NCBI RefSeq assembly: GCF_055900595.2
Contig: NZ_CM148325.1
Length of the DNA stretch: 64,000 nucleotides
Reading direction: 5' to 3' (one strand)
In this document: positions 17,099 through 29,160 of the stretch, one piece after another
How the letters are laid out: each line of letters opens with the position of its first letter
Numbering within the stretch: position 1 is the first letter of the stretch
Notes under the pieces: generated by a model
What the model saw: only the letters and a program-made list of their open reading frames with translations
What the model was told of the DNA's origin: nothing
Databases searched by the model: none
Position numbers and translations under genes: made by a program

Positions 17099-17374
17099 TT
17101 ATTTCTTCTTATAAATATTTGCCGTGCCGTGGATCTTATTGTCAGTTTGACCAGAGGTCAGCACCAACACATCTGCCCCTTTTTCATCCGCTTTTTTGAT
17201 CAGATCTTCTTTCGCATCTGCAGTCGACATTTCATTACTGGTTGAAATATCACCTATTTTTTCGTACTGCGATGCAACTTTTTCAAATTCCGCTTTGGTC
17301 ATTAATTCTGCGGCATAAACGTTGGTAACGGCAAACGCTAACGCACCGATTAACATTTTAGAGATTATTTTCAT
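17099..17374 (-). CDS. yahO: small periplasmic DUF1471-family protein, 91 aa
   Basis: Signal peptide [23 protein letters not shown] followed by a small soluble domain; position next to prpR as in K-12. Confidence 0.85.
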
Positions 17375-17558
17375 ATTACGGCTCCAGAGTTGTTATCAAA
17401 CTATCACCCACCCATATTATTGGGTTGATTAATAATTAGTTCAGTCAGGGCATAAACGCCAGTAACCGGAAATAAGACACTTTGTGATCTCTCTCGCATC
17501 CGATTACTTTTTGTAGAAATATGATGAAGTTACTTCACTTATTTATGGATCAAATCAC

Positions 17559-18191
17559 ATGGATCCCTTGCACGCCGTTTACCTGACCGTAGGACTGTTC
17601 GTGATGACTTTTTTTAATCCGGGAGCCAATCTTTTTGTGGTGGTACAAACCAGCCTGGCTTCCGGTCGACGCGCAGGAGTGCTGACCGGGTTGGGCGTGG
17701 CACTGGGCGATGCGTTTTATTCCGGGTTGGGTTTGTATGGTCTTGCGACACTCATTACGCAGTGTGAGGAGATTTTTTCGCTTATCAGAATCGTAGGCGG
17801 CGCTTATCTCTTATGGTTTGCGTGGTGCAGCATGCGCCGCCAGTCAACACCGCAAATAAGCACACTACAACAACCGATTAGCGCCCCCTGGTATGTCTTT
17901 TTTCGCCGTGGATTAATTACCGATCTCTCTAATCCACAGACCGTTTTATTTTTTATCAGTATTTTCTCAGTAACGTTAAATGCTGAAACACCAACTTGGG
18001 CACGTTTAATGGCCTGGACGGGAATTGTGTTCGCATCAATTATCTGGCGAGTCTTTCTTAGTCAGGCGTTTTCTTTGCCCGCTGTGCGTCGTGCTTATGG
18101 GCGTATGCAACGCGTTGCCAGTCGGGTTATTGGTGCAATTATTGGTGTATTCGCGCTACGCCTGATTTACGAAGGAGTAACACAGCGGTGA
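17559..18191 (+). CDS. yahN: LysE/RhtB-family amino-acid exporter-like membrane protein
   Basis: 210-aa hydrophobic ORF; an upstream ATG pair at 17521 is out of frame and hits a stop after 21 codons. Confidence 0.85.
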   Translation: MDPLHAVYLTVGLFVMTFFNPGANLFVVVQTSLASGRRAGVLTGLGVALGDAFYSGLGLYGLATLITQCEEIFSLIRIVGGAYLLWFAWCSMRRQSTPQISTLQQPISAPWYVFFRRGLITDLSNPQTVLFFISIFSVTLNAETPTWARLMAWTGIVFASIIWRVFLSQAFSLPAVRRAYGRMQRVASRVIGAIIGVFALRLIYEGVTQR

Positions 18192-18316
18192 GCAGATAAT
18201 TTACTCTCTACGTAATCAACCTGATTTGCCGAATCCCGCTCATCGGCGATGATACCCCCCGTAATGCGTGGTCCTTATTTCCGATAAGTTTACTTGAGTC
18301 TTTAGCTTCCCATTTC

Positions 18317-18346
18317 AGCCCACTCTCCCCTGTGTGGGCTTTTTTC
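18317..18346 (+). terminator. Rho-independent terminator about 125 nt downstream of yahN
   Basis: agcccac-tctcccctgt-gtgggct hairpin followed by TTTTTTC. Confidence 0.7.
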
Positions 18347-18437
18347 ATTTGTCTGCTTCAGTGAGTAGCTGGCCATGCTCCATCCACTCTGCAAGGATGA
18401 TAATAAGAGGATCTGATTCAGAAGAGTTTTGAAAAAT

Positions 18438-18518
18438 TGGACCGCCATCGAGGCCTCGAACCCCGTACCATACAACAATCCTGGTTGTCGTCTGCTCTTC
18501 CTGATGAGCTAATGGCGG
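18438..18518 (-). ncRNA. tRNA-like element (degenerate; possible pseudo-tRNA or integration scar)
   Basis: Minus strand: perfect 7-bp acceptor stem CCGCCAT/ATGGCGG, D-arm GCTC-ATCAGGAA-GAGC, T-arm CGGGG-TTCGAGG-CCTCG, discriminator T then CCA; anticodon arm non-canonical (loop CAGGATT, no U33) with 4 extra nt before it. Confidence 0.45.
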
Positions 18519-18820
18519 TTTGTGATATGAGCCTTACAGCATATTGTCTGTCAGGCTTGAGTGCGATGCGTAAGATACAGAAAAGACCCCACACAAACAT
18601 GATGGAATTATGATTTTTTTCATATGAATGTCAACCAACACATTCATAAAACACTCGCACAAGTTCACTTTTTAAGCAACATGACGCCGATCACAACAAA
18701 ATATCGGCGAAAAAGGAGGGTAAATGCCATTTGACGTAGAGATAAGCAGATGAAATGATTACCCGCTTTGCGATTCACTCTCTGATGGAATAACAAATTG
18801 GAGATGGAAAAGTTTCTAAA

Positions 18821-19636
18821 CTAAAGAGTGTAGCGTATTTTAACGTGCTTATTTACAGGATAATATTTGTCACCTAATTCCTGCACTCTATTAGATACCC
18901 ATTGATTTAATCGTGCATCATCTCTGTATGTTTTCACGTTCAGAACGGAGAGCAATAACATCACTAGCGATTCAGGAAAAACAGGGTAAATATTTTTTAA
19001 GTGCAATAATAATTCATACGCAAGCGCCTGCTTAATAGGTGCGTCTGCATCCGGAATGCGCGACATTTCGCGAAGCCATTTTTCTACATGCTCACATTCT
19101 TTCCCTTCACGGAAAAGTCTCAACAAAGGCATATGGTGCTCAAGAAGAATGCATTTGCAATCTGTTCGTACTGAATCGATAAACTGCACTAATTTCTTAA
19201 GTCCGGTGAAGCGTCCGGCATGGATATTCTCTTTAATATCAAGAAACACGTCATCCTGATCATATACCCAAACGGTCCCTTTTTGATTTTCAAGTATCCG
19301 AAAAACAAACTTAATCGGGTAATCAGGGTAATCCACCCAGTCATAAACTCCAGGGAAATCATTAAACTGCACATTTATGGTAAGCGCATTGTCGGCTGCC
19401 CACTCGCAATCTCGTACGGCAGCCATGAGATAAATGAGTTTATCATCATCGACTAAATCATCACGACAATCATAAGGATAATCATAGTATTGTTTAATCA
19501 AAACCTTGAATATATCGACACAAGAAACCAGTGTACTTCTGATATCTTCAGGTAACTGATTGTTTTTAAACGTATTGTGTACGCTTTGTTTCGTATATAG
19601 CAACAAATTATTGTGCGGCGCTTTTAATGGTATCAT
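18821..19636 (-). CDS. yahL: uncharacterised protein, 271 aa, in an AT-rich segment
   Basis: Long ORF with clear ATG in a visibly AT-rich stretch; position between yahN and yahK. Confidence 0.75.
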   Translation of the reverse strand: MIPLKAPHNNLLLYTKQSVHNTFKNNQLPEDIRSTLVSCVDIFKVLIKQYYDYPYDCRDDLVDDDKLIYLMAAVRDCEWAADNALTINVQFNDFPGVYDWVDYPDYPIKFVFRILENQKGTVWVYDQDDVFLDIKENIHAGRFTGLKKLVQFIDSVRTDCKCILLEHHMPLLRLFREGKECEHVEKWLREMSRIPDADAPIKQALAYELLLHLKNIYPVFPESLVMLLLSVLNVKTYRDDARLNQWVSNRVQELGDKYYPVNKHVKIRYTL

Positions 19637-19878
19637 TGCGATCTCTCTTAAATAAAAATAAACGTCGCAGATAATAAAGCCCTGATTAAACCAGGCACTA
19701 TCAGAAATCGCTCATAACTAACGAGTGAAGTATTGTGTACTGGAGGGAGTTATTTTAACAATTTGAATTTACGTTATAGGTTTTACCGCTACTTTGATAT
19801 TATTTCGCTCTCCTTAACTAAAAAGTTAAGTGGAGAGCGAAGTTAATATGTTAAACCACAGGGTATTTATTAATTGTT

Positions 19879-20928
19879 TCAGTCTGTTAGTGTGCGATTA
19901 TCGATAACAAAACGATATTTCACATCTCCTCGCAGCATTCGCTCATAGGCTTCATTAATTTGATCGGCCCGAATCATCTCTATATCAGCCACGATGCCAT
20001 GTTCGGCGCAAAAATCGAGCATCTCCTGTGTTTCTGGAATGCCGCCAATCATAGAGCCGGCTATCGCGCGGCGTTTCATGATCAGGTTGAAAACTTCCGG
20101 CGATTTATGCGGTGTCGCAGGCGCACCAACCAGCGTCATGGTGCCATCGCGCTTCAGCAAGGTGGTAAAATCGTCGAGATTATGTGGCGCAGCTACGGTA
20201 TTCAAAATGAAATCGAAACTCTTCACATGAGCCGCCATCTCATCGGCATTGCGCGAGTTAACAACTTCATCGGCCCCAAGGGCTTTTGCCGCTTCGCGTT
20301 TTGACTCAGACGTGGTAAACGCCACTACATGCGCCCCCATCGAGTGGGCCAGCTTTATCCCCATATGCCCCAGACCGCCAATGCCGACCACTCCCACTTT
20401 TTTACCCGGCCCGGCCTGCCAGTGACGCAGCGGCGAGTACGTGGTGATCCCTGCACACAATAAAGGCGCCACCGCCGCCAGTTGCGCTTGCGGGTGACGA
20501 ATACGCAGAACATATCGCTCGTGAACGACAATCTGTTGTGAGTAGCCGCCCAGCGTATGGCCCGGTTCGTCCGGCGTCGGCGAGTTATAGGTGCCGGTCA
20601 TGTGATCACAGTAGTTTTCCAGCCCGTCTTCACACTCTTCGCAATGTTTACAACTGTCGACAATGCAGCCGACACCGACCAGATCGCCCGGCGCATATTT
20701 TTCTACCTGATCACCAACGGCTACCACGCGCCCTACAATTTCATGGCCCGGCACGCAGGGATAAACCGTCCCCGCCCACTCGGAACGGACCTGGTGGATA
20801 TCGGAATGGCAGACGCCACAGTAAGCGATTTCAATTTTGACATCATGCGGTCCCGGTTCACGCCGGGTAATATCCATCGGTTCCAGCGGTTGTTTAGCGG
20901 AATATGCACCAACAGCTTTGATCTTCAT
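19879..20928 (-). CDS. yahK: zinc-dependent alcohol dehydrogenase family aldehyde reductase, 349 aa
   Basis: MDR/ADH motifs (GVCHSD, GHEIVG, GIGGLGH); 349 aa. Confidence 0.9.
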   Translation of the reverse strand: MKIKAVGAYSAKQPLEPMDITRREPGPHDVKIEIAYCGVCHSDIHQVRSEWAGTVYPCVPGHEIVGRVVAVGDQVEKYAPGDLVGVGCIVDSCKHCEECEDGLENYCDHMTGTYNSPTPDEPGHTLGGYSQQIVVHERYVLRIRHPQAQLAAVAPLLCAGITTYSPLRHWQAGPGKKVGVVGIGGLGHMGIKLAHSMGAHVVAFTTSESKREAAKALGADEVVNSRNADEMAAHVKSFDFILNTVAAPHNLDDFTTLLKRDGTMTLVGAPATPHKSPEVFNLIMKRRAIAGSMIGGIPETQEMLDFCAEHGIVADIEMIRADQINEAYERMLRGDVKYRFVIDNRTLTD

Positions 20929-21014
20929 TGTGTTTACTCCTGATTAGCTATATGTATTTGGCGATGACTGAAATGCCATCGCAGCAAAACGCGTCCATTG
21001 AATATAGCCAATAT

Positions 21015-21971
21015 TTAAACCACCCGATCCAGTCCCAACATGCCGCGAGCCTGAATGAAACAGAGCAGCAACGTTCCCCATAAGGCCATCGTCAGGTAGG
21101 GGCTTATCCCGAGAATATTGAAGCCGCTTTCAATAATTTGCAGAAGAAACAGCGCCAGCACCATACCAATTATCCGCCCGCTGCCGCCGTCCGGATTAAC
21201 CCCGCCGAGTACTGCCGCGAGGATTGACACCAGCAAGTACGATTCGCCATAAGAGGCCTTAGCCGAGTTGAGTTTCGACATCATCAAAAATGCCGCTACC
21301 GCACAAAGCAAGGCGGAAATGACATACACCCATATCAGCACCCGACGCGTGTTAATACCGGAGTAAAGTGTTGCTCGTTCGTTAGAACCAATCAGATAAA
21401 TGGATTTACCGAGCGGCGTTTTCTCCAGCAATATCCACAGCCCCAGCGCCACTGCGGTAAACAACCACATCGGTAGCGGAATACCGAACCACTGTGCATG
21501 ATTCAACCACAGCACCCATGAGGGATAATTGGCAATGGCGCTACCGCCTGTCACCAGAATATTTACCCCTTTGAGCAACGTCATCATCCCAAGCGTTGCA
21601 AGAATTGGCGACACTCGAATACCGGCAATCAATACGCCATTACATAAACCAATTATCACCGCCGCACCAGCGCCCGCCAGCAGCGTAGCGACAACCGTAG
21701 TAATACCCGGCGGATACTGAGTCGCCACCCACGCCATCACCAGTGAACAGGCGTTAGCGGTAGCAATAATTGACAAGTTAATGCCGCCACAAAGCATGGT
21801 CACCGCCATAGCCAACGCCAGAATGCCCAGCACGGGCATTTGCGAAGCGACAGACTGGAAGTTACTTATCGACCAGAAAATCTCCGGCATAGTAATGCTG
21901 AACGCGGCAACAGTTAGCACCAGCAGGCCGATCAAATAAAACTCAACGTTATTACGCCACGATTTTTTCAT
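21015..21971 (-). CDS. sugar ABC transporter permease (CUT2 family, RbsC/LsrD-like)
   Basis: Polytopic membrane ORF; ATG at 21971 overlaps the stop of the upstream permease (ATGA coupling); ORF-track start 22001 is a GTG extension. Confidence 0.8.
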   Translation of the reverse strand: MKKSWRNNVEFYLIGLLVLTVAAFSITMPEIFWSISNFQSVASQMPVLGILALAMAVTMLCGGINLSIIATANACSLVMAWVATQYPPGITTVVATLLAGAGAAVIIGLCNGVLIAGIRVSPILATLGMMTLLKGVNILVTGGSAIANYPSWVLWLNHAQWFGIPLPMWLFTAVALGLWILLEKTPLGKSIYLIGSNERATLYSGINTRRVLIWVYVISALLCAVAAFLMMSKLNSAKASYGESYLLVSILAAVLGGVNPDGGSGRIIGMVLALFLLQIIESGFNILGISPYLTMALWGTLLLCFIQARGMLGLDRVV

Positions 21972-22939
21972 AGCAGACTCCGGTTCTGATGCTGACTCCA
22001 CGCCGTGGCGCTAATGCTGGCAACGATGATGATGCCTGTGATCAATGTTTGCCAGTAAGACGAGACTCCCAATAAATTTAGCCCGTTTTGCATCACTGCC
22101 AACAACACCACGCCGAGCAAAGTACCGGTTAACGTGCCGCGCCCGCCGAGCAAACTAGTGCCGCCAAGCACCACCGCAGCCAGTACTGTCAGCTCATAAC
22201 CCAGAAGAGAATCGGGGGCGACAGTCATCACCGTCCACGACTGCACTACACCCGCAGCACCAGACATCAATCCCATATAGCCGTAAACGAAAAGTTGCAG
22301 TTTCAGCACGCTAAAGCCGATGCGACTGGCTGATTCACGGTTCCCGCCAAGGGCATAAATTTTGCGCCCTACACTGGTGAAATTCATGATAAACGCTGTC
22401 AGCAGCACCACCGTAATCATGGCGATCAGCGGCAGACCAAGGCCATAGTCATAGCCGTCAGCATCGGTGTACTTGAACAACATTACCCCCTGCTCAAACC
22501 ACGGCGGAAAGTCGTACAGCCACACACCTTTACTCAACCATAACAGCAGGCCATAGAAAATATTCAGCGTCGAAATGGTGATGATGATAGAAGGCACCCG
22601 TAGGCGATTAACCAGTAAGGCGTTTATTAAGCCAAGTAAAATGCCGATGCCGCCCGCCAGGGCAAACGCGACAGCAAAGTTGCCACCCATTTTTTGTAGC
22701 AACAGCACCATGCCGTATTGCGCAATGATGGTCATTGCCGGAAACGAAATATCAATTCCACCGGAAATTAACACCACAAACAAACCACAGGCGAGAATAG
22801 TCAACATGGCATAGTTATTGGCGAGATCGTACAAATTACCGAATGTCAGAAACTCGTCGCTGCGCCAGGCAAGGCCAACAAACAGCACTATAATCAGTAA
22901 TGCCAGCCAGAATTCATGGCGTTTTTTCAGTTCAGCCAT
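21968..22939 (-). CDS. sugar ABC transporter permease (CUT2 family, RbsC/LsrC-like), 323 aa
   Basis: Polytopic membrane ORF; start overlaps the ATPase stop. Confidence 0.85.
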   Translation of the reverse strand: MAELKKRHEFWLALLIIVLFVGLAWRSDEFLTFGNLYDLANNYAMLTILACGLFVVLISGGIDISFPAMTIIAQYGMVLLLQKMGGNFAVAFALAGGIGILLGLINALLVNRLRVPSIIITISTLNIFYGLLLWLSKGVWLYDFPPWFEQGVMLFKYTDADGYDYGLGLPLIAMITVVLLTAFIMNFTSVGRKIYALGGNRESASRIGFSVLKLQLFVYGYMGLMSGAAGVVQSWTVMTVAPDSLLGYELTVLAAVVLGGTSLLGGRGTLTGTLLGVVLLAVMQNGLNLLGVSSYWQTLITGIIIVASISATAWSQHQNRSLL

Positions 22940-24416
22940 TTACCACCTCCGCAATCCTGGCCTGAGAACTGCTGTCAGGCAGGAAGCTATGGGTGATCTG
23001 ACCTTTTTGCATTACCAAAATCCGGTGGCTTTGATACCACGCTTCTTCAATTTCATCGCAGATCATCAATACCGCAATGCCATGAGCCGCCAGATCGCTG
23101 ATAATGCCGTATATTCCTGCTTTGTTGGCGATATCAACACCGACAGTCGGGCTATCGAGAATCAACAGTCGTGGCCCAATCGCCAGCCATTTGGCGATCG
23201 ATACTCGCTGCGCGTTACCCCCGGAAAGCGTATTCACCGGGAGATGTGGGTCAGAGACTTTGATGGTCAATGCCTTAATTAGCCTGTCCACCAGGTCACG
23301 CACTTTAGCTTCACTCAGAAAGCCGAAGCGATCTTTTACCTTGTGAAAAACAGTGCTAATGATGTTGTCTTCAATAGATTGCGCCATCACCAAACCGCGC
23401 GACATGCGATCTTCCGAAACATAACCAATACCGTGGCGGATGGCGTCCTGGTTACTATGCAGTGTAACCGGCTGACCGTTGATGAGGATCTCACCAGCAT
23501 CCGGTCGGGTCATACCAAACAGACTCAGACATAATTCCGTGCGCCCCGCACCAAGCAGGCCAACAATCGACACCACTTCGCCCGCTTCCACCCGCAAGTT
23601 AATATTTTGATATTCCCCATGACGACTTAAATTACGCACCTCCAGCACTGGGGTGCTGGATTTTCCCTGCCACAACTCTCGCACCTGATATTCAAACTCC
23701 TGGCCGGTCATCAGGAAACCGAGTTGTTTTGTGGTCATCTCTGCAGCCGGAAAGGTCCCGACCAGCTCACCATCTTTCAACACTGAAATACGGTCGGAAA
23801 CTTCCATCACCTCTTCCAGACGATGACTGACGAAGACCACGCAGATCCCGCGTTCCCGCAATTGATGCACCACCTGTAATAACCCTTGCACTTCCTGATG
23901 GGTCAGCGAAGCGGTTGGTTCATCCATCACGATCAACCGTGCGTCCTGCGCCAGTGCACGGCAAATTGCCACCAGCTGACAGCGGGCAATTGAAAGCTCA
24001 GAAACGAGCGTATCCAGTGGCAATGTGACGTTAATACTGGTCATTGCCGCCTGCGCCACCTCACGCAGACGACGTCGGTTAACAAACAGTCCGTGGTGAT
24101 AGTGATTCACGGCGATATTCTCCCAGACACTCAGGTTAGGAAATAAAGAGAGGTCCTGATAAATCACCTGAATCCCCTGCGCCACCGAAGCGGCGGGTGT
24201 CAGCTTTGACCAGTTTTTCCCACCAAGCGTAATTTCCGCCCCCTCATCCGGGCGATAAACACCGGACATAATTTTAATCAACGTCGATTTACCACAGCCG
24301 TTTTGCCCGGCAAGGCAGTGCACCTCACCCGACATAAAGTCGAGAGAAACATCGCGCAGCGCTCGCGTGGCATGAAACGTTTTGTTGATATGACGAAGGG
24401 AAAGGAAGGTTTCCAT
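22932..24416 (-). CDS. sugar ABC transporter ATP-binding protein with duplicated ABC domains (RbsA/LsrA-like)
   Basis: Walker A GQNGCGKST, signature LSGGNAQR and a second ABC domain; ATG at 24416 (METFLSLRH...) preferred over the TTG at 24431. Confidence 0.85.
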   Translation of the reverse strand: METFLSLRHINKTFHATRALRDVSLDFMSGEVHCLAGQNGCGKSTLIKIMSGVYRPDEGAEITLGGKNWSKLTPAASVAQGIQVIYQDLSLFPNLSVWENIAVNHYHHGLFVNRRRLREVAQAAMTSINVTLPLDTLVSELSIARCQLVAICRALAQDARLIVMDEPTASLTHQEVQGLLQVVHQLRERGICVVFVSHRLEEVMEVSDRISVLKDGELVGTFPAAEMTTKQLGFLMTGQEFEYQVRELWQGKSSTPVLEVRNLSRHGEYQNINLRVEAGEVVSIVGLLGAGRTELCLSLFGMTRPDAGEILINGQPVTLHSNQDAIRHGIGYVSEDRMSRGLVMAQSIEDNIISTVFHKVKDRFGFLSEAKVRDLVDRLIKALTIKVSDPHLPVNTLSGGNAQRVSIAKWLAIGPRLLILDSPTVGVDIANKAGIYGIISDLAAHGIAVLMICDEIEEAWYQSHRILVMQKGQITHSFLPDSSSQARIAEVVNG

Positions 24417-24464
24417 AGCATCCCCTGGCAATAAGAATCGGGGCTTTCGCCCCGAAGAAATGGA

Positions 24465-25451
24465 TTAATAAAGTGAGTCAATATTGTCTTTGTTGACCAG
24501 TAATACCTTATGGAAACGGATAATTCGCTTATCCATATCTACGTCGGCCTTACCGAGATTCTCCATTTCTAATCCAGGTTTGATCTCTTCACCCTTCAGC
24601 AACGTGCTGGCGACGGCCGCGAGTGCGTAACCTGCAGAGGCCGGATCGTAAGTAATCCCTTCGGTGATATCACCACTTTTAATCAATGATGCCGCCTGTG
24701 AAGGGATCATCATGCCATAGACTGCGACTTTATTTTTCGCCCGTTTCTCTTTCACCGCACGTCCCGCGCCAATCGGACCGTTTGAACCAAAGGAGACAAC
24801 CGCTTTCAAGTCAGGATAGGTTTTCATCAGGTCCAGTGTGGTACGACGTGAGTCATCCACACTCTCGGCAACCGGCATGCGGCGGGTAACTTCATGCATA
24901 TCCGGGTAATGCTCTTTCTGGTATTTCACCAGCAAGTCAGCCCATAAGTTATGCTGCGGCACGGTCAAACTACCCACATAAATCACATAGCCGCCCTTGC
25001 CACCCATGCGTTTCGCCATATGTTCAACATATTCAGCGGCAAATTTTTCGTTATCAATGATTTCGATATCCCAGTTAGCACTTGGCTGACCGGGGGATTC
25101 GTTGGTCAGAACCACAATTCCGGCATCTCGCGCTTTTTTGAATACCGGTTCTAGCACGTTGGCATCGTTTGGCACGATAGTAATTGCGTTAACCTTACGA
25201 GCGATTAAATCCTCAATAATTTTAACCTGTTGCGGAGCATCAGTACTTGAAGGTCCCACCTGTGACGCATTAACCCCAAAGGCTTTACCTGCCTCGACCA
25301 CACCTTCGCCCATGCGATTAAACCACGGCATACCATCGACTTTAGAGATATTCACCACGACTTTTTCCGCTGCCTGGAGCGGCGAGGAAATTAGCGCAGC
25401 GCCTAATAACAGCGAAGACACCATATTGATAACAAAACGTTTATTCATCAT
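24465..25451 (-). CDS. periplasmic sugar-binding protein (RbsB/LsrB-like), 328 aa
   Basis: Signal peptide MMNKRFVINMVSSLLLGAALISSPLQAAE; type I periplasmic-binding-protein fold; C-terminal NKDNID motif resembles LsrB as recalled. Confidence 0.8.
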   Translation of the reverse strand: MMNKRFVINMVSSLLLGAALISSPLQAAEKVVVNISKVDGMPWFNRMGEGVVEAGKAFGVNASQVGPSSTDAPQQVKIIEDLIARKVNAITIVPNDANVLEPVFKKARDAGIVVLTNESPGQPSANWDIEIIDNEKFAAEYVEHMAKRMGGKGGYVIYVGSLTVPQHNLWADLLVKYQKEHYPDMHEVTRRMPVAESVDDSRRTTLDLMKTYPDLKAVVSFGSNGPIGAGRAVKEKRAKNKVAVYGMMIPSQAASLIKSGDITEGITYDPASAGYALAAVASTLLKGEEIKPGLEMENLGKADVDMDKRIIRFHKVLLVNKDNIDSLY

Positions 25452-25701
25452 TTCAGCCTCATTGCAGGGTAGTCAGGAAGTGTTCGCCCAAATTAGCGCG
25501 CTGGAGAGAATAAGAATTTTCGAATATTTTTATGCAGAATAAACAGCCCTATTTCAGGCAGCTATTAAAAATTTGGTTATAAATATGGACAAAACGGGCA
25601 GTAACAATAAGTGTGACAATCATCACGTAAAAAATAGCAAAATAAACAAAATTAGCGATACTTTATGTTTATGAGCTTATTTCGCGTAGAAAAATAGTTA
25701 T

Positions 25702-26112
25702 CTACACAATGTCAATAAGGGCATATTCTTCAAAGATAACGTCCATTTCGGGTGAATAGCATCCTTCTGCCTGGAAAAAACGACGGTGTTCATTACGCCA
25801 ATATTCAAGACTGAGGTCACCTTCACCTTCCTTACGGGCAAGCTCCGCGGTGACATCAGAAAAGCGCAGTAAATGCAGGCCAATAACTCTGATAACACAT
25901 ACAGGCTCACCACGGCTATTTTCTACAATCTTATACTCACCAATCATCGGAAATGCGTTGTCTTCAATACATCCCGCCAGCGAACCACAGGAAGCTGTTT
26001 TAACACCAGTCGCAATCAACGTTGCGAGGTGATCGGCCAACGCTTCTGAATCGCCAAAAGTACAAAAGGAAGCATGGGGATATTTTTGTGAGATTTTTTC
26101 TTTTATGGTCAT
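25702..26112 (-). CDS. ASCH-domain-like small protein
   Basis: ORF 25702..26145; ATG at 26112 (MTIKEKISQ...) or GTG at 26145; assignment by sequence resemblance only. Confidence 0.5.
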   Translation of the reverse strand: MTIKEKISQKYPHASFCTFGDSEALADHLATLIATGVKTASCGSLAGCIEDNAFPMIGEYKIVENSRGEPVCVIRVIGLHLLRFSDVTAELARKEGEGDLSLEYWRNEHRRFFQAEGCYSPEMDVIFEEYALIDIV

Positions 26113-26408
26113 GAGAATATTTTCGCGATTACGGAAAAAAATCACATCTTAATTACTGTTGATAACCATCAGCAAGAGGATCATTGGTTTTTCTATGTTT
26201 AATCTTTTTTATCCGAAGCAGGTCACATTTATGGCTTGATAAATACCTTTGTTAAAACTCACTTTTGTGTATTTCTCTCAAATAATCCCCTGGAAATTAT
26301 GCCGGGAGATTATAAAGTTCAGGATCATTCATTAACAAACCATTCCCGCCCCACTCCCTGGGGCTTAAATCTCTTACTATTCACCGTTGCAGGCGTTTCA
26401 AATTCGTA

Positions 26409-28789: not shown

Positions 28790-29160
28790 CAACGCCAGAC
28801 AGCCTGATGCGCTACGCTTATCAGGCCTACAGATTCTTGTGCCATTCGTAGGCCGGATAAGGCGTCCACGCCGCATCCGGCAATGGTGACAAATGCCTGA
28901 TGCGCTACGCTTATCAGGCCTACAGATTCTCGCGCCACTCGTAGGCCGGATAAGGCGTTCACGCCACAACCGGCAATGGTGACAAATGCCTGATGCGCTA
29001 CGCTTATCAGGCCTACAGATTCTTGCGCCACTCGTAGGCTGGATAAGGCGTTCACGCCGCATCCGGCAATCGTGACAAATGCCTGATGCGCTACGCTTAT
29101 CAGGCCTACAGATTCTTGCGCCACTCGTAGGCCGGATAAGGCGTTCACGCCGCATCCGGC
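28790..29160. repeat. Tandem BIME/REP array, 4 copies of a 93-bp unit
   Basis: gcctgatgcgctacgcttatcaggcctac recurs at 28802, 28895, 28988 and 29081, each followed by an inverted REP gtaggccggataaggcgttcacgccgcatccggc; ORF 28748..29263 across it is a translation artefact. Confidence 0.9.

Follow-up and report, generated by a model that had tools for sequence, protein, structure and literature searches.

In Escherichia coli, the closest described system is xtpA, which the title of a 2022 paper presents as a leaderless mRNA with a tRNA-like sequence, encoding a peptide which regulates how the sRNA GcvB is expressed (Muto, Goto, Kurita, Ushida, Soma, Himeno, J Biochem 2022;171:459). RegulonDB v12 contains XtpA as a newly added small protein and gives Muto et al. 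2022 as its reference 25. In the K-12 RefSeq annotation, xtpA (b4845) is a gene of 183 nt located at 345252..345434, and its product is termed "putative transcriptional regulator XtpA". The abstract of the xtpA study is said to describe the sequence as kept in E. coli strains and as similar to a tRNA for arginine that occurs in pathogenicity islands and phages. A deletion mutant is reportedly more sensitive to aminoglycosides, and the tRNA-like element is reportedly presented only as a part of the mRNA.

Other known systems are more distant. The tmRNA (SsrA) resembles xtpA in concept only, by combining a tRNA-like fold and a translated frame in one transcript. In tmRNA, however, the two RNA termini (5' and 3') form the fold, with the frame for the tag peptide between them, whereas the xtpA cloverleaf is contiguous and is located inside the ORF. 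A second case is the chromosomal tRNA-Other of Bacillus cereus, which has a defective anticodon arm and is reportedly linked to antibiotic susceptibility and regulation, but not to decoding. It resembles the xtpA cloverleaf in its chromosomal location, its likeness to a tRNA and the defect of its anticodon arm, but it is unrelated in sequence and organism, and an RNA action at xtpA is what we infer. The K-12 elements ptwF and pawZ are 3' fragments of tRNAs at prophage ends, which were duplicated by integration beside an intact parent tRNA gene. They share with the xtpA cloverleaf the derivation from a tRNA and the connection to horizontally acquired DNA; in contrast to them, the xtpA cloverleaf is full-length and has neither a parent copy in the genome nor a repeat partner. 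Finally, lambdoid and Stx phages carry an ileZ-argN-argO tRNA cluster downstream of Q and ahead of the stx or lysis genes. No paper was returned when the literature was searched for these three tRNA genes in combination.

Here, we analysed a tRNA-like interval within a 64-kb stretch of DNA (64,000 nucleotides), which is referred to as the window. With high confidence, this interval is the known xtpA tRNA-like element and has its origin in an argN-type tRNA gene of phages. Since the tRNA-like sequence, its connection with the leaderless xtpA mRNA and a phenotype have been published before and xtpA is already included in K-12 RefSeq and in RegulonDB, the element matters little as a discovery. 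What goes beyond verifiably published work is the invariance of the cloverleaf across Escherichia in combination with an unconserved reading frame. We consider it quite probable that the interval is the tRNA-like module of xtpA, that it descends from phage argN, that promoter and cloverleaf are under selection, and that the XtpA frame is young. The comparison bears on whether the functional product of xtpA is a peptide or an RNA, and if the RNA is what evolution preserves, the assignment of function at xtpA would change.

The xtpA locus and its predicted transcript

Over positions 17500-19500, the window is 100% identical to E. coli Z0117EC0005, while most other E. coli reach about 92-95% identity. 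The locus is arranged in the order yahL - xtpA - yahM - yahN, both in K-12 and in the 100%-identical genome, and the following features are central to the analysis:

18438..18518, minus strand: tRNA-like cloverleaf, 81 nt (ARAGORN, RNAfold, homology to phage argN)
18418..18600, minus strand: xtpA ORF, 60 aa plus stop, orthologue of K-12 b4845
18519..18600, minus strand: 5' segment of the predicted transcript, corresponding to the first 27 xtpA codons, 82 nt, variable
18607..18612, minus strand: -10 hexamer CATAAT of the xtpA promoter (promoter scan)
18629..18634, minus strand: -35 hexamer TTGACA of the xtpA promoter (promoter scan)

The product of the 60-aa ORF is identical to K-12 XtpA in 58 of 60 residues, with Q19K and Q27K as the only differences, and the DNA of the cloverleaf is 100% identical to the tRNA-like part of K-12 xtpA. 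Locus, tRNA-like part, promoter and the yahM/yahN neighbours are the same as in K-12 and nothing essential differs; the window represents a divergent E. coli lineage with two Lys/Gln differences and a frameshifted yahM. The original prediction was aware of no annotated tRNA or pseudo-tRNA at this place in K-12. This is correct in so far as neither PGAP nor the K-12 annotation contains a tRNA feature at the cloverleaf, but the locus itself is annotated as xtpA/b4845. It had also considered the 60-aa ORF as probably not coding, which is at odds with the annotation of xtpA and the experimental paper from 2022, but in line with the missing conservation of the frame outside of E. coli. This comparative doubt leaves the published evidence for translation in K-12 standing.

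The sigma-70 promoter of xtpA (TTGACA-16-CATAAT, 18634..18607, minus strand) matches the consensus at 11 of 12 positions and is kept in all Escherichia lineages that were compared. The end of its -10 hexamer is only 7 nt away from the A of the ATG and the xtpA transcript is therefore predicted to be leaderless, in keeping with what Muto et al. 2022 state in their title. The RNA would begin with the ATG at 18600 or right beside it, and the transcript would comprise the variable 82-nt 5' segment, followed by the 81-nt cloverleaf that ends with CCA. In E. coli, xtpA would span both the 5' segment and the cloverleaf in one frame of 60 codons. Two hairpins are predicted for the 5' segment, with support at the wobble level only. 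A preprint based on massively parallel reporters describes promoter activity upstream of yahM and its repression by IHF, and we infer that the promoter in question is that of xtpA.

The window lacks (at about 18665-18675, minus strand) a stretch of 40 nt that is present directly ahead of the xtpA promoter in K-12 and in most E. coli. In general, the spacer between yahL and xtpA is far more divergent than xtpA itself.

A tRNA-like cloverleaf with an aberrant anticodon arm

The individual elements of the cloverleaf are as follows:

18512-18518 and 18442-18448, minus strand: acceptor strands, perfect 7 bp, CCGCCAT/ATGGCGG
18494-18509, minus strand: D arm, stem GCTC/GAGC, GG in the loop
18472-18491, minus strand: anticodon-like arm, aberrant
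18449-18465, minus strand: T arm, stem CGGGG/CCTCG, loop TTCGAGG
18441, minus strand: discriminator T
18438-18440, minus strand: encoded CCA

Across all 64 kb of the window, ARAGORN makes a single tRNA call, which covers 18438..18518 on the minus strand. The near-complete tRNA fold that had been proposed for this strand was thereby recovered with the same coordinates and arms, and RNAfold likewise produces a cloverleaf. This is the minimum-energy fold of the element alone (-29 kcal/mol, with a modest z of -1.9) and also inside a 301-nt context. Several features of a canonical tRNA are present, i.e., the 7-bp acceptor stem, G18 and G19 in the D arm, T54 T55 C56 and the 3' CCA, but the element deviates in the anticodon loop, where U33 and a purine at position 37 are missing, and in the region after the D stem, where a canonical tRNA has a single base (position 26).

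ARAGORN assigns the element to tRNA-Ser(GGA) and places the anticodon at position 38, which is abnormal. Its drawing of the anticodon arm shows a 5-bp stem (ACAAC/GTTGT) with the loop CAGGATT, A33 instead of U33 and U37, and five bases between the D stem and the anticodon stem, compared to one in canonical tRNAs. The non-canonical arm of the original prediction, with the same loop, no U33 and extra bases before the stem, is thus reproduced. RNAfold places the arm in another register, with a 7-bp stem and a 6-nt loop (CCAGGA). As the anticodon arm is rearranged in both registers, the cloverleaf is a tRNA-like element that cannot decode normally.

The Rfam tRNA model (RF00005) did not match the cloverleaf, neither at the gathering threshold (29 bits) nor at E<=10 in a search of 18300..18700, whereas a true phage argN, serving as positive control, reached 53.6 bits with the same model. 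A tmRNA was found neither by the ARAGORN tmRNA search nor by Rfam, and the weak Rfam matches at E<=10 around the cloverleaf are terminator-like or AT-rich chance matches. The covariance-model check that had been suggested was therefore negative for tRNA and tmRNA, yet ARAGORN and the phage homology support the element. A match by chance is excluded by the homology of the cloverleaf to genuine tRNA genes of phages, with E = 4e-19 to phiP27.

Homology to phage argN genes

The cloverleaf is 76-87% identical to the argN family, which provides the middle tRNA of the phage ileZ-argN-argO cluster, with E values down to 4e-19. The closest matches (82-87%) are to a degenerate 81-nt form in phiP27, mEp460 and the phage-like plasmid pHX138.261ft_1, for which PGAP uses the name "tRNA-OTHER", while the identity to bona fide argN, tRNA-Arg(UCG), is 75-78%. 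The argN family and the cloverleaf share the acceptor, D and T arms, the discriminator, the CCA and an upstream spacer of about 8 nt, and the degenerate phage form also shares with the cloverleaf the length of 81 nt and the GAGCAGACGACA junction. In contrast, the anticodon arm and the variable region of the cloverleaf are unlike both phage forms, and in the alignment the arginine anticodon loop of argN, CTTCGAA with the anticodon UCG, is absent from the cloverleaf. At the level of sequence, these alignments establish the descent of the cloverleaf from an argN-type arginine-tRNA gene of lambdoid/Stx phages, and the homology bears out the earlier proposal that the tRNA-like element was acquired horizontally.

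The homology to phages ends about 8 nt upstream of the cloverleaf and at its CCA. When the flanks were compared with phage ileZ, argO and neighbouring DNA, the local alignments were no better than those of shuffled sequence. Thus, unlike phage argN, the cloverleaf is chromosomal, has its own promoter and lacks the ileZ-argO setting of the phage late region; it is a solo, full-length, phage-derived tRNA-like gene segment. PHROG and NCBIfam contained no family for YahL, XtpA or YahM.

In IMG/VR, 14 further phage copies were found, which are all of the phiP27 type and always located between ileZ and argO. The middle section of the xtpA type was present in no phage or viral contig examined, including these 14 copies. 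The degenerate phage copies also show signs of decay: half of them have a mismatch in the T stem, and the T loop is disrupted in mEp460, whereas the chromosomal cloverleaf is invariant. In many lambdoid phages, the degenerate 81-nt argN copy is missed by ARAGORN and by most annotations, while the flanking ileZ and argO are intact.

Conservation of the cloverleaf across Escherichia

Of 5426 complete E. coli genomes, 5168 contain the cloverleaf, and in 4821 of these 5168 its 81 nt are 100% identical to the window. The median is one place per genome, with two to three places in a few genomes. Identity also extends beyond E. coli, since all 81 positions are the same in the window, K-12, E. albertii, Escherichia sp. 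E1V33, Escherichia sp. MOD1-EC5350 and SCPM-O-B-8794, the latter being a separate GTDB species representative. For comparison, the identity of yahN to K-12 is 83-87% in the non-coli Escherichia lineages and 95% in the window.

At the species level, 29 of 82 columns are variable in the 5' segment and 68 of 80 in the trailer, but only 1 of 48 in the part of the cloverleaf outside of the search pattern (Fisher p = 3e-6 against the 5' segment and 2e-22 against the trailer); these lineages were retrieved partly via the cloverleaf itself, by an exact 33-nt pattern or by protein similarity, and strongly diverged copies would escape. A set of 127 sequences that was retrieved by the promoter only is free of this bias, although it contains almost only E. 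coli, and here segregating sites amount to 34/82 in the 5' segment, 4/81 in the cloverleaf and 93/106 downstream.

The commonest variant of the cloverleaf, found in the O157 lineage, changes a G.U pair of the T stem into G-C. As this substitution is also synonymous in xtpA, it does not separate RNA constraints from coding constraints. Of the other variants, two affect the terminal CCA, one is probably a sequencing error and one is an IS1 insertion. The latter is located within the T loop of the cloverleaf in E. coli DETEC-S792 (NZ_CP116067.1), where no yahL is annotated between yahK and the cloverleaf, and it indicates that the cloverleaf is dispensable, at least in this strain. The suggestion to compare the stems across Escherichia for conservation with compensatory changes was thus borne out in its first part, because the stems are invariant, but not in its second: compensatory double substitutions were absent from the cloverleaf stems across the Escherichia lineages aligned. 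Evidence from covariation is not available precisely because the cloverleaf is invariant.

Reading frame versus RNA

In contrast to the cloverleaf, the reading frame of xtpA has a mixed record. It is intact, with 57-60 aa, in approximately 90% of the sampled E. coli sequences. Codon 4, however, is TGG in E. coli, AAG in E1V33 and the stop codon TAG in E. albertii, SCPM-O-B-8794 and MOD1-EC5350. In the first 27 codons, replacements dominate over synonymous changes relative to K-12, with nonsynonymous to synonymous ratios of 10:2 in E1V33, 7:1 in E. albertii and 6:3 in SCPM-O-B-8794. In 8 E. coli-like contigs, two of which have lengths of 329 kb and 2.2 Mb, a deletion of 1 nt leads to a product of 21 aa, and this frameshifted E. 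coli lineage has no canonical in-frame restart; the cloverleaf is intact in 8 of 8. The C-terminal tail of XtpA beyond the cloverleaf also varies between lineages. In the cloverleaf portion of xtpA, not a single synonymous change was observed in 27 codons, even in lineages in which yahN is 13-17% divergent.

These data bear on the strongest rival explanation, according to which the interval matters only as the 3' half of xtpA, with the tRNA shape as a historical leftover. It is in line with the annotation of xtpA, the GcvB-regulating peptide named in the title of Muto et al. 2022, the intact frame in most E. coli and the synonymous nature of the O157 substitution. We nevertheless regard a role in coding only as unlikely, because it does not account for the lack of synonymous changes in the cloverleaf codons, the replacements and the TAG codon in the first half of the ORF, the frameshift and the variable C-terminal tail. 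The cloverleaf is invariant and its promoter conserved while the frame is broken or replaced, which suggests, with moderate confidence, that the promoter and the RNA cloverleaf are what selection maintains, and not the peptide. The cloverleaf most likely acts as an RNA. It may be recognised by tRNA-handling enzymes, such as RNase P, those for 3' trimming and CCA enzymes, which would result in a stable tRNA mimic; alternatively, it may be a structural module that sets the fate of the transcript. In this view, the long XtpA frame appears to have been added only lately in the E. coli lineage, as an overprint on the cloverleaf RNA. The peptide function that was reported in K-12 may be additional to the RNA role.

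Going further, we tentatively propose, with somewhat less than even confidence, that the selected unit is an Escherichia-wide, phage-derived gene for a tRNA-mimic RNA, and that XtpA is a recent overprint of the E. coli lineage that arose when an ancestral TAG of codon 4 changed to TGG. If an RNA gene with a late overprint is indeed present, the GcvB and aminoglycoside phenotype could be caused wholly or partly by the RNA, E. coli would gain a domesticated phage tRNA as a non-decoding RNA, and xtpA would provide a clean case of a new protein gene arising over such a domesticated phage tRNA.

Less probable readings of the interval

The position of the element had been interpreted as that expected for an integration scar or a pseudo-tRNA. 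A neutral pseudo-tRNA or a scar left by a phage or island would fit to the origin of the cloverleaf from a phage tRNA gene, to the AT-rich surroundings and to the variable gene content. This reading is nonetheless very improbable. A decaying relic is contradicted by a cloverleaf that is identical across Escherichia species in which yahN differs by 13-17%, and by the comparison with the degenerate phage copies, which do decay. A scar is contradicted by the full length of the element, which is not a 3' fragment, and by its median of one place per genome. The direct repeat of the 3' half that had been anticipated was not found, and a repeat of the 3' end was likewise absent from the 64-kb window. 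Integrase or prophage genes are not annotated nearby, where the neighbours are yahN, yahM, yahL and yahK, and the flanks contain no relic of ileZ or argO. A remnant of a prophage late region was rejected as well, because candidate ileZ/argO relics in the flanks score no better than shuffled sequence.

Hardly more can be said for a recombination or attB site, in which the cloverleaf would be kept or homogenised by exchange with phage argN copies; its chances appear equally slim. The main observation in its favour is the metagenome contig OHAE01014166.1 (2385 nt), which contains the 3' end of yahL, the xtpA promoter, the 5' segment and the first ~22 nt of the cloverleaf and then continues, inside the cloverleaf, with a phage argN-type tRNA, argO and phage late-region DNA. 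We do not take this contig as evidence for recombination, because it is short and its join, in a shared stretch of ~24 nt, is typical of an assembly chimera. The two to three cloverleaf places in a few genomes could also be cited for exchange, but the median of one place per genome speaks against it. Since the xtpA-type middle section was found in no phage or viral contig, phages are not the source of a homogenisation.

A working, decoding tRNA-Ser with the anticodon GGA has a negligible probability despite the ARAGORN call, the intact acceptor, D and T arms, the encoded CCA and the tRNA-like conservation, because the Rfam tRNA model gives no match at E<=10, the anticodon arm has, depending on the register, a 7-nt loop with A33 and U37 or a loop of only 6 nt, five bases instead of one separate the D and anticodon stems, PGAP annotates no tRNA and the cloverleaf lacks a long variable arm, which is the main serine identity element of tRNA-Ser.

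Neighbourhood and synteny

The cloverleaf has only one constant neighbour. In the window, the cloverleaf is surrounded by yahO, yahN (plus strand), a frameshifted yahM-like ORF, yahL and yahK, in which the cloverleaf, located between the yahM-like ORF and yahL, and all genes after yahN are on the minus strand. The features next to the cloverleaf are:

18208..18448, minus strand: yahM-like ORF, frameshifted, with its ATG inside the 3' acceptor strand of the cloverleaf
18317..18346, plus strand: GC-rich hairpin with a T-run, seen in the sequence about 126 nt past the yahN stop codon
18821..19636, minus strand: yahL, AT-rich (GC 0.34-0.41)

The yahM-like ORF has indels relative to K-12 and is annotated by PGAP as a frameshifted pseudogene in the 100%-identical genome. 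As yahM is also frameshifted in a B2 strain, shortened in O157 and not called between the cloverleaf and yahN in E. albertii and MOD1-EC5350, it is probably not a conserved gene. The hairpin at 18317..18346 is probably the terminator of yahN; it has no U-tail on the xtpA strand, its sole Rfam similarity is to a generic terminator hairpin, and it is kept in most of the lineages compared. The segment of ~125 nt from the yahN stop to this hairpin (18192-18346, plus strand) is also well conserved in most lineages, including E. albertii.

The original description of the cloverleaf as lying between a strong terminator and the AT-rich yahL is accurate for the window, where both are present, but the adjacency to yahL is incidental: yahL is absent in the B2 strain, in E. 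albertii and in MOD1-EC5350, and all three contain the cloverleaf. As E. albertii and MOD1-EC5350 also have neither yahK nor yahM called at the locus, the constant synteny is reduced to the cloverleaf and yahN. Upstream of the cloverleaf, MOD1-EC5350 has a gene for a SNF2-family helicase and E. albertii one for a yahJ-like amidohydrolase.

Several minor observations concern the wider region. The genome is a divergent E. coli lineage here: the segment from yahN to yahK (17358-21086) is approximately 93-95% identical to K-12, and only 17 of the genomes matched, among 5,426 searched, are at least 99% identical over the 2-kb query. Between yahK and yahJ, the window contains ~5 kb of extra DNA compared with K-12 (~21090-26350), and in the 100%-identical genome yahK is adjoined by genes for ABC-transporter permeases. 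Further downstream, at 28851-28920, 28944-29013 and 29037-29106 on the plus strand, there are three tandem Rfam matches to naRNA4 (RF02564), a nucleoid-associated ncRNA or REP-type repeat, with 70-76 bits and thus above the gathering score.
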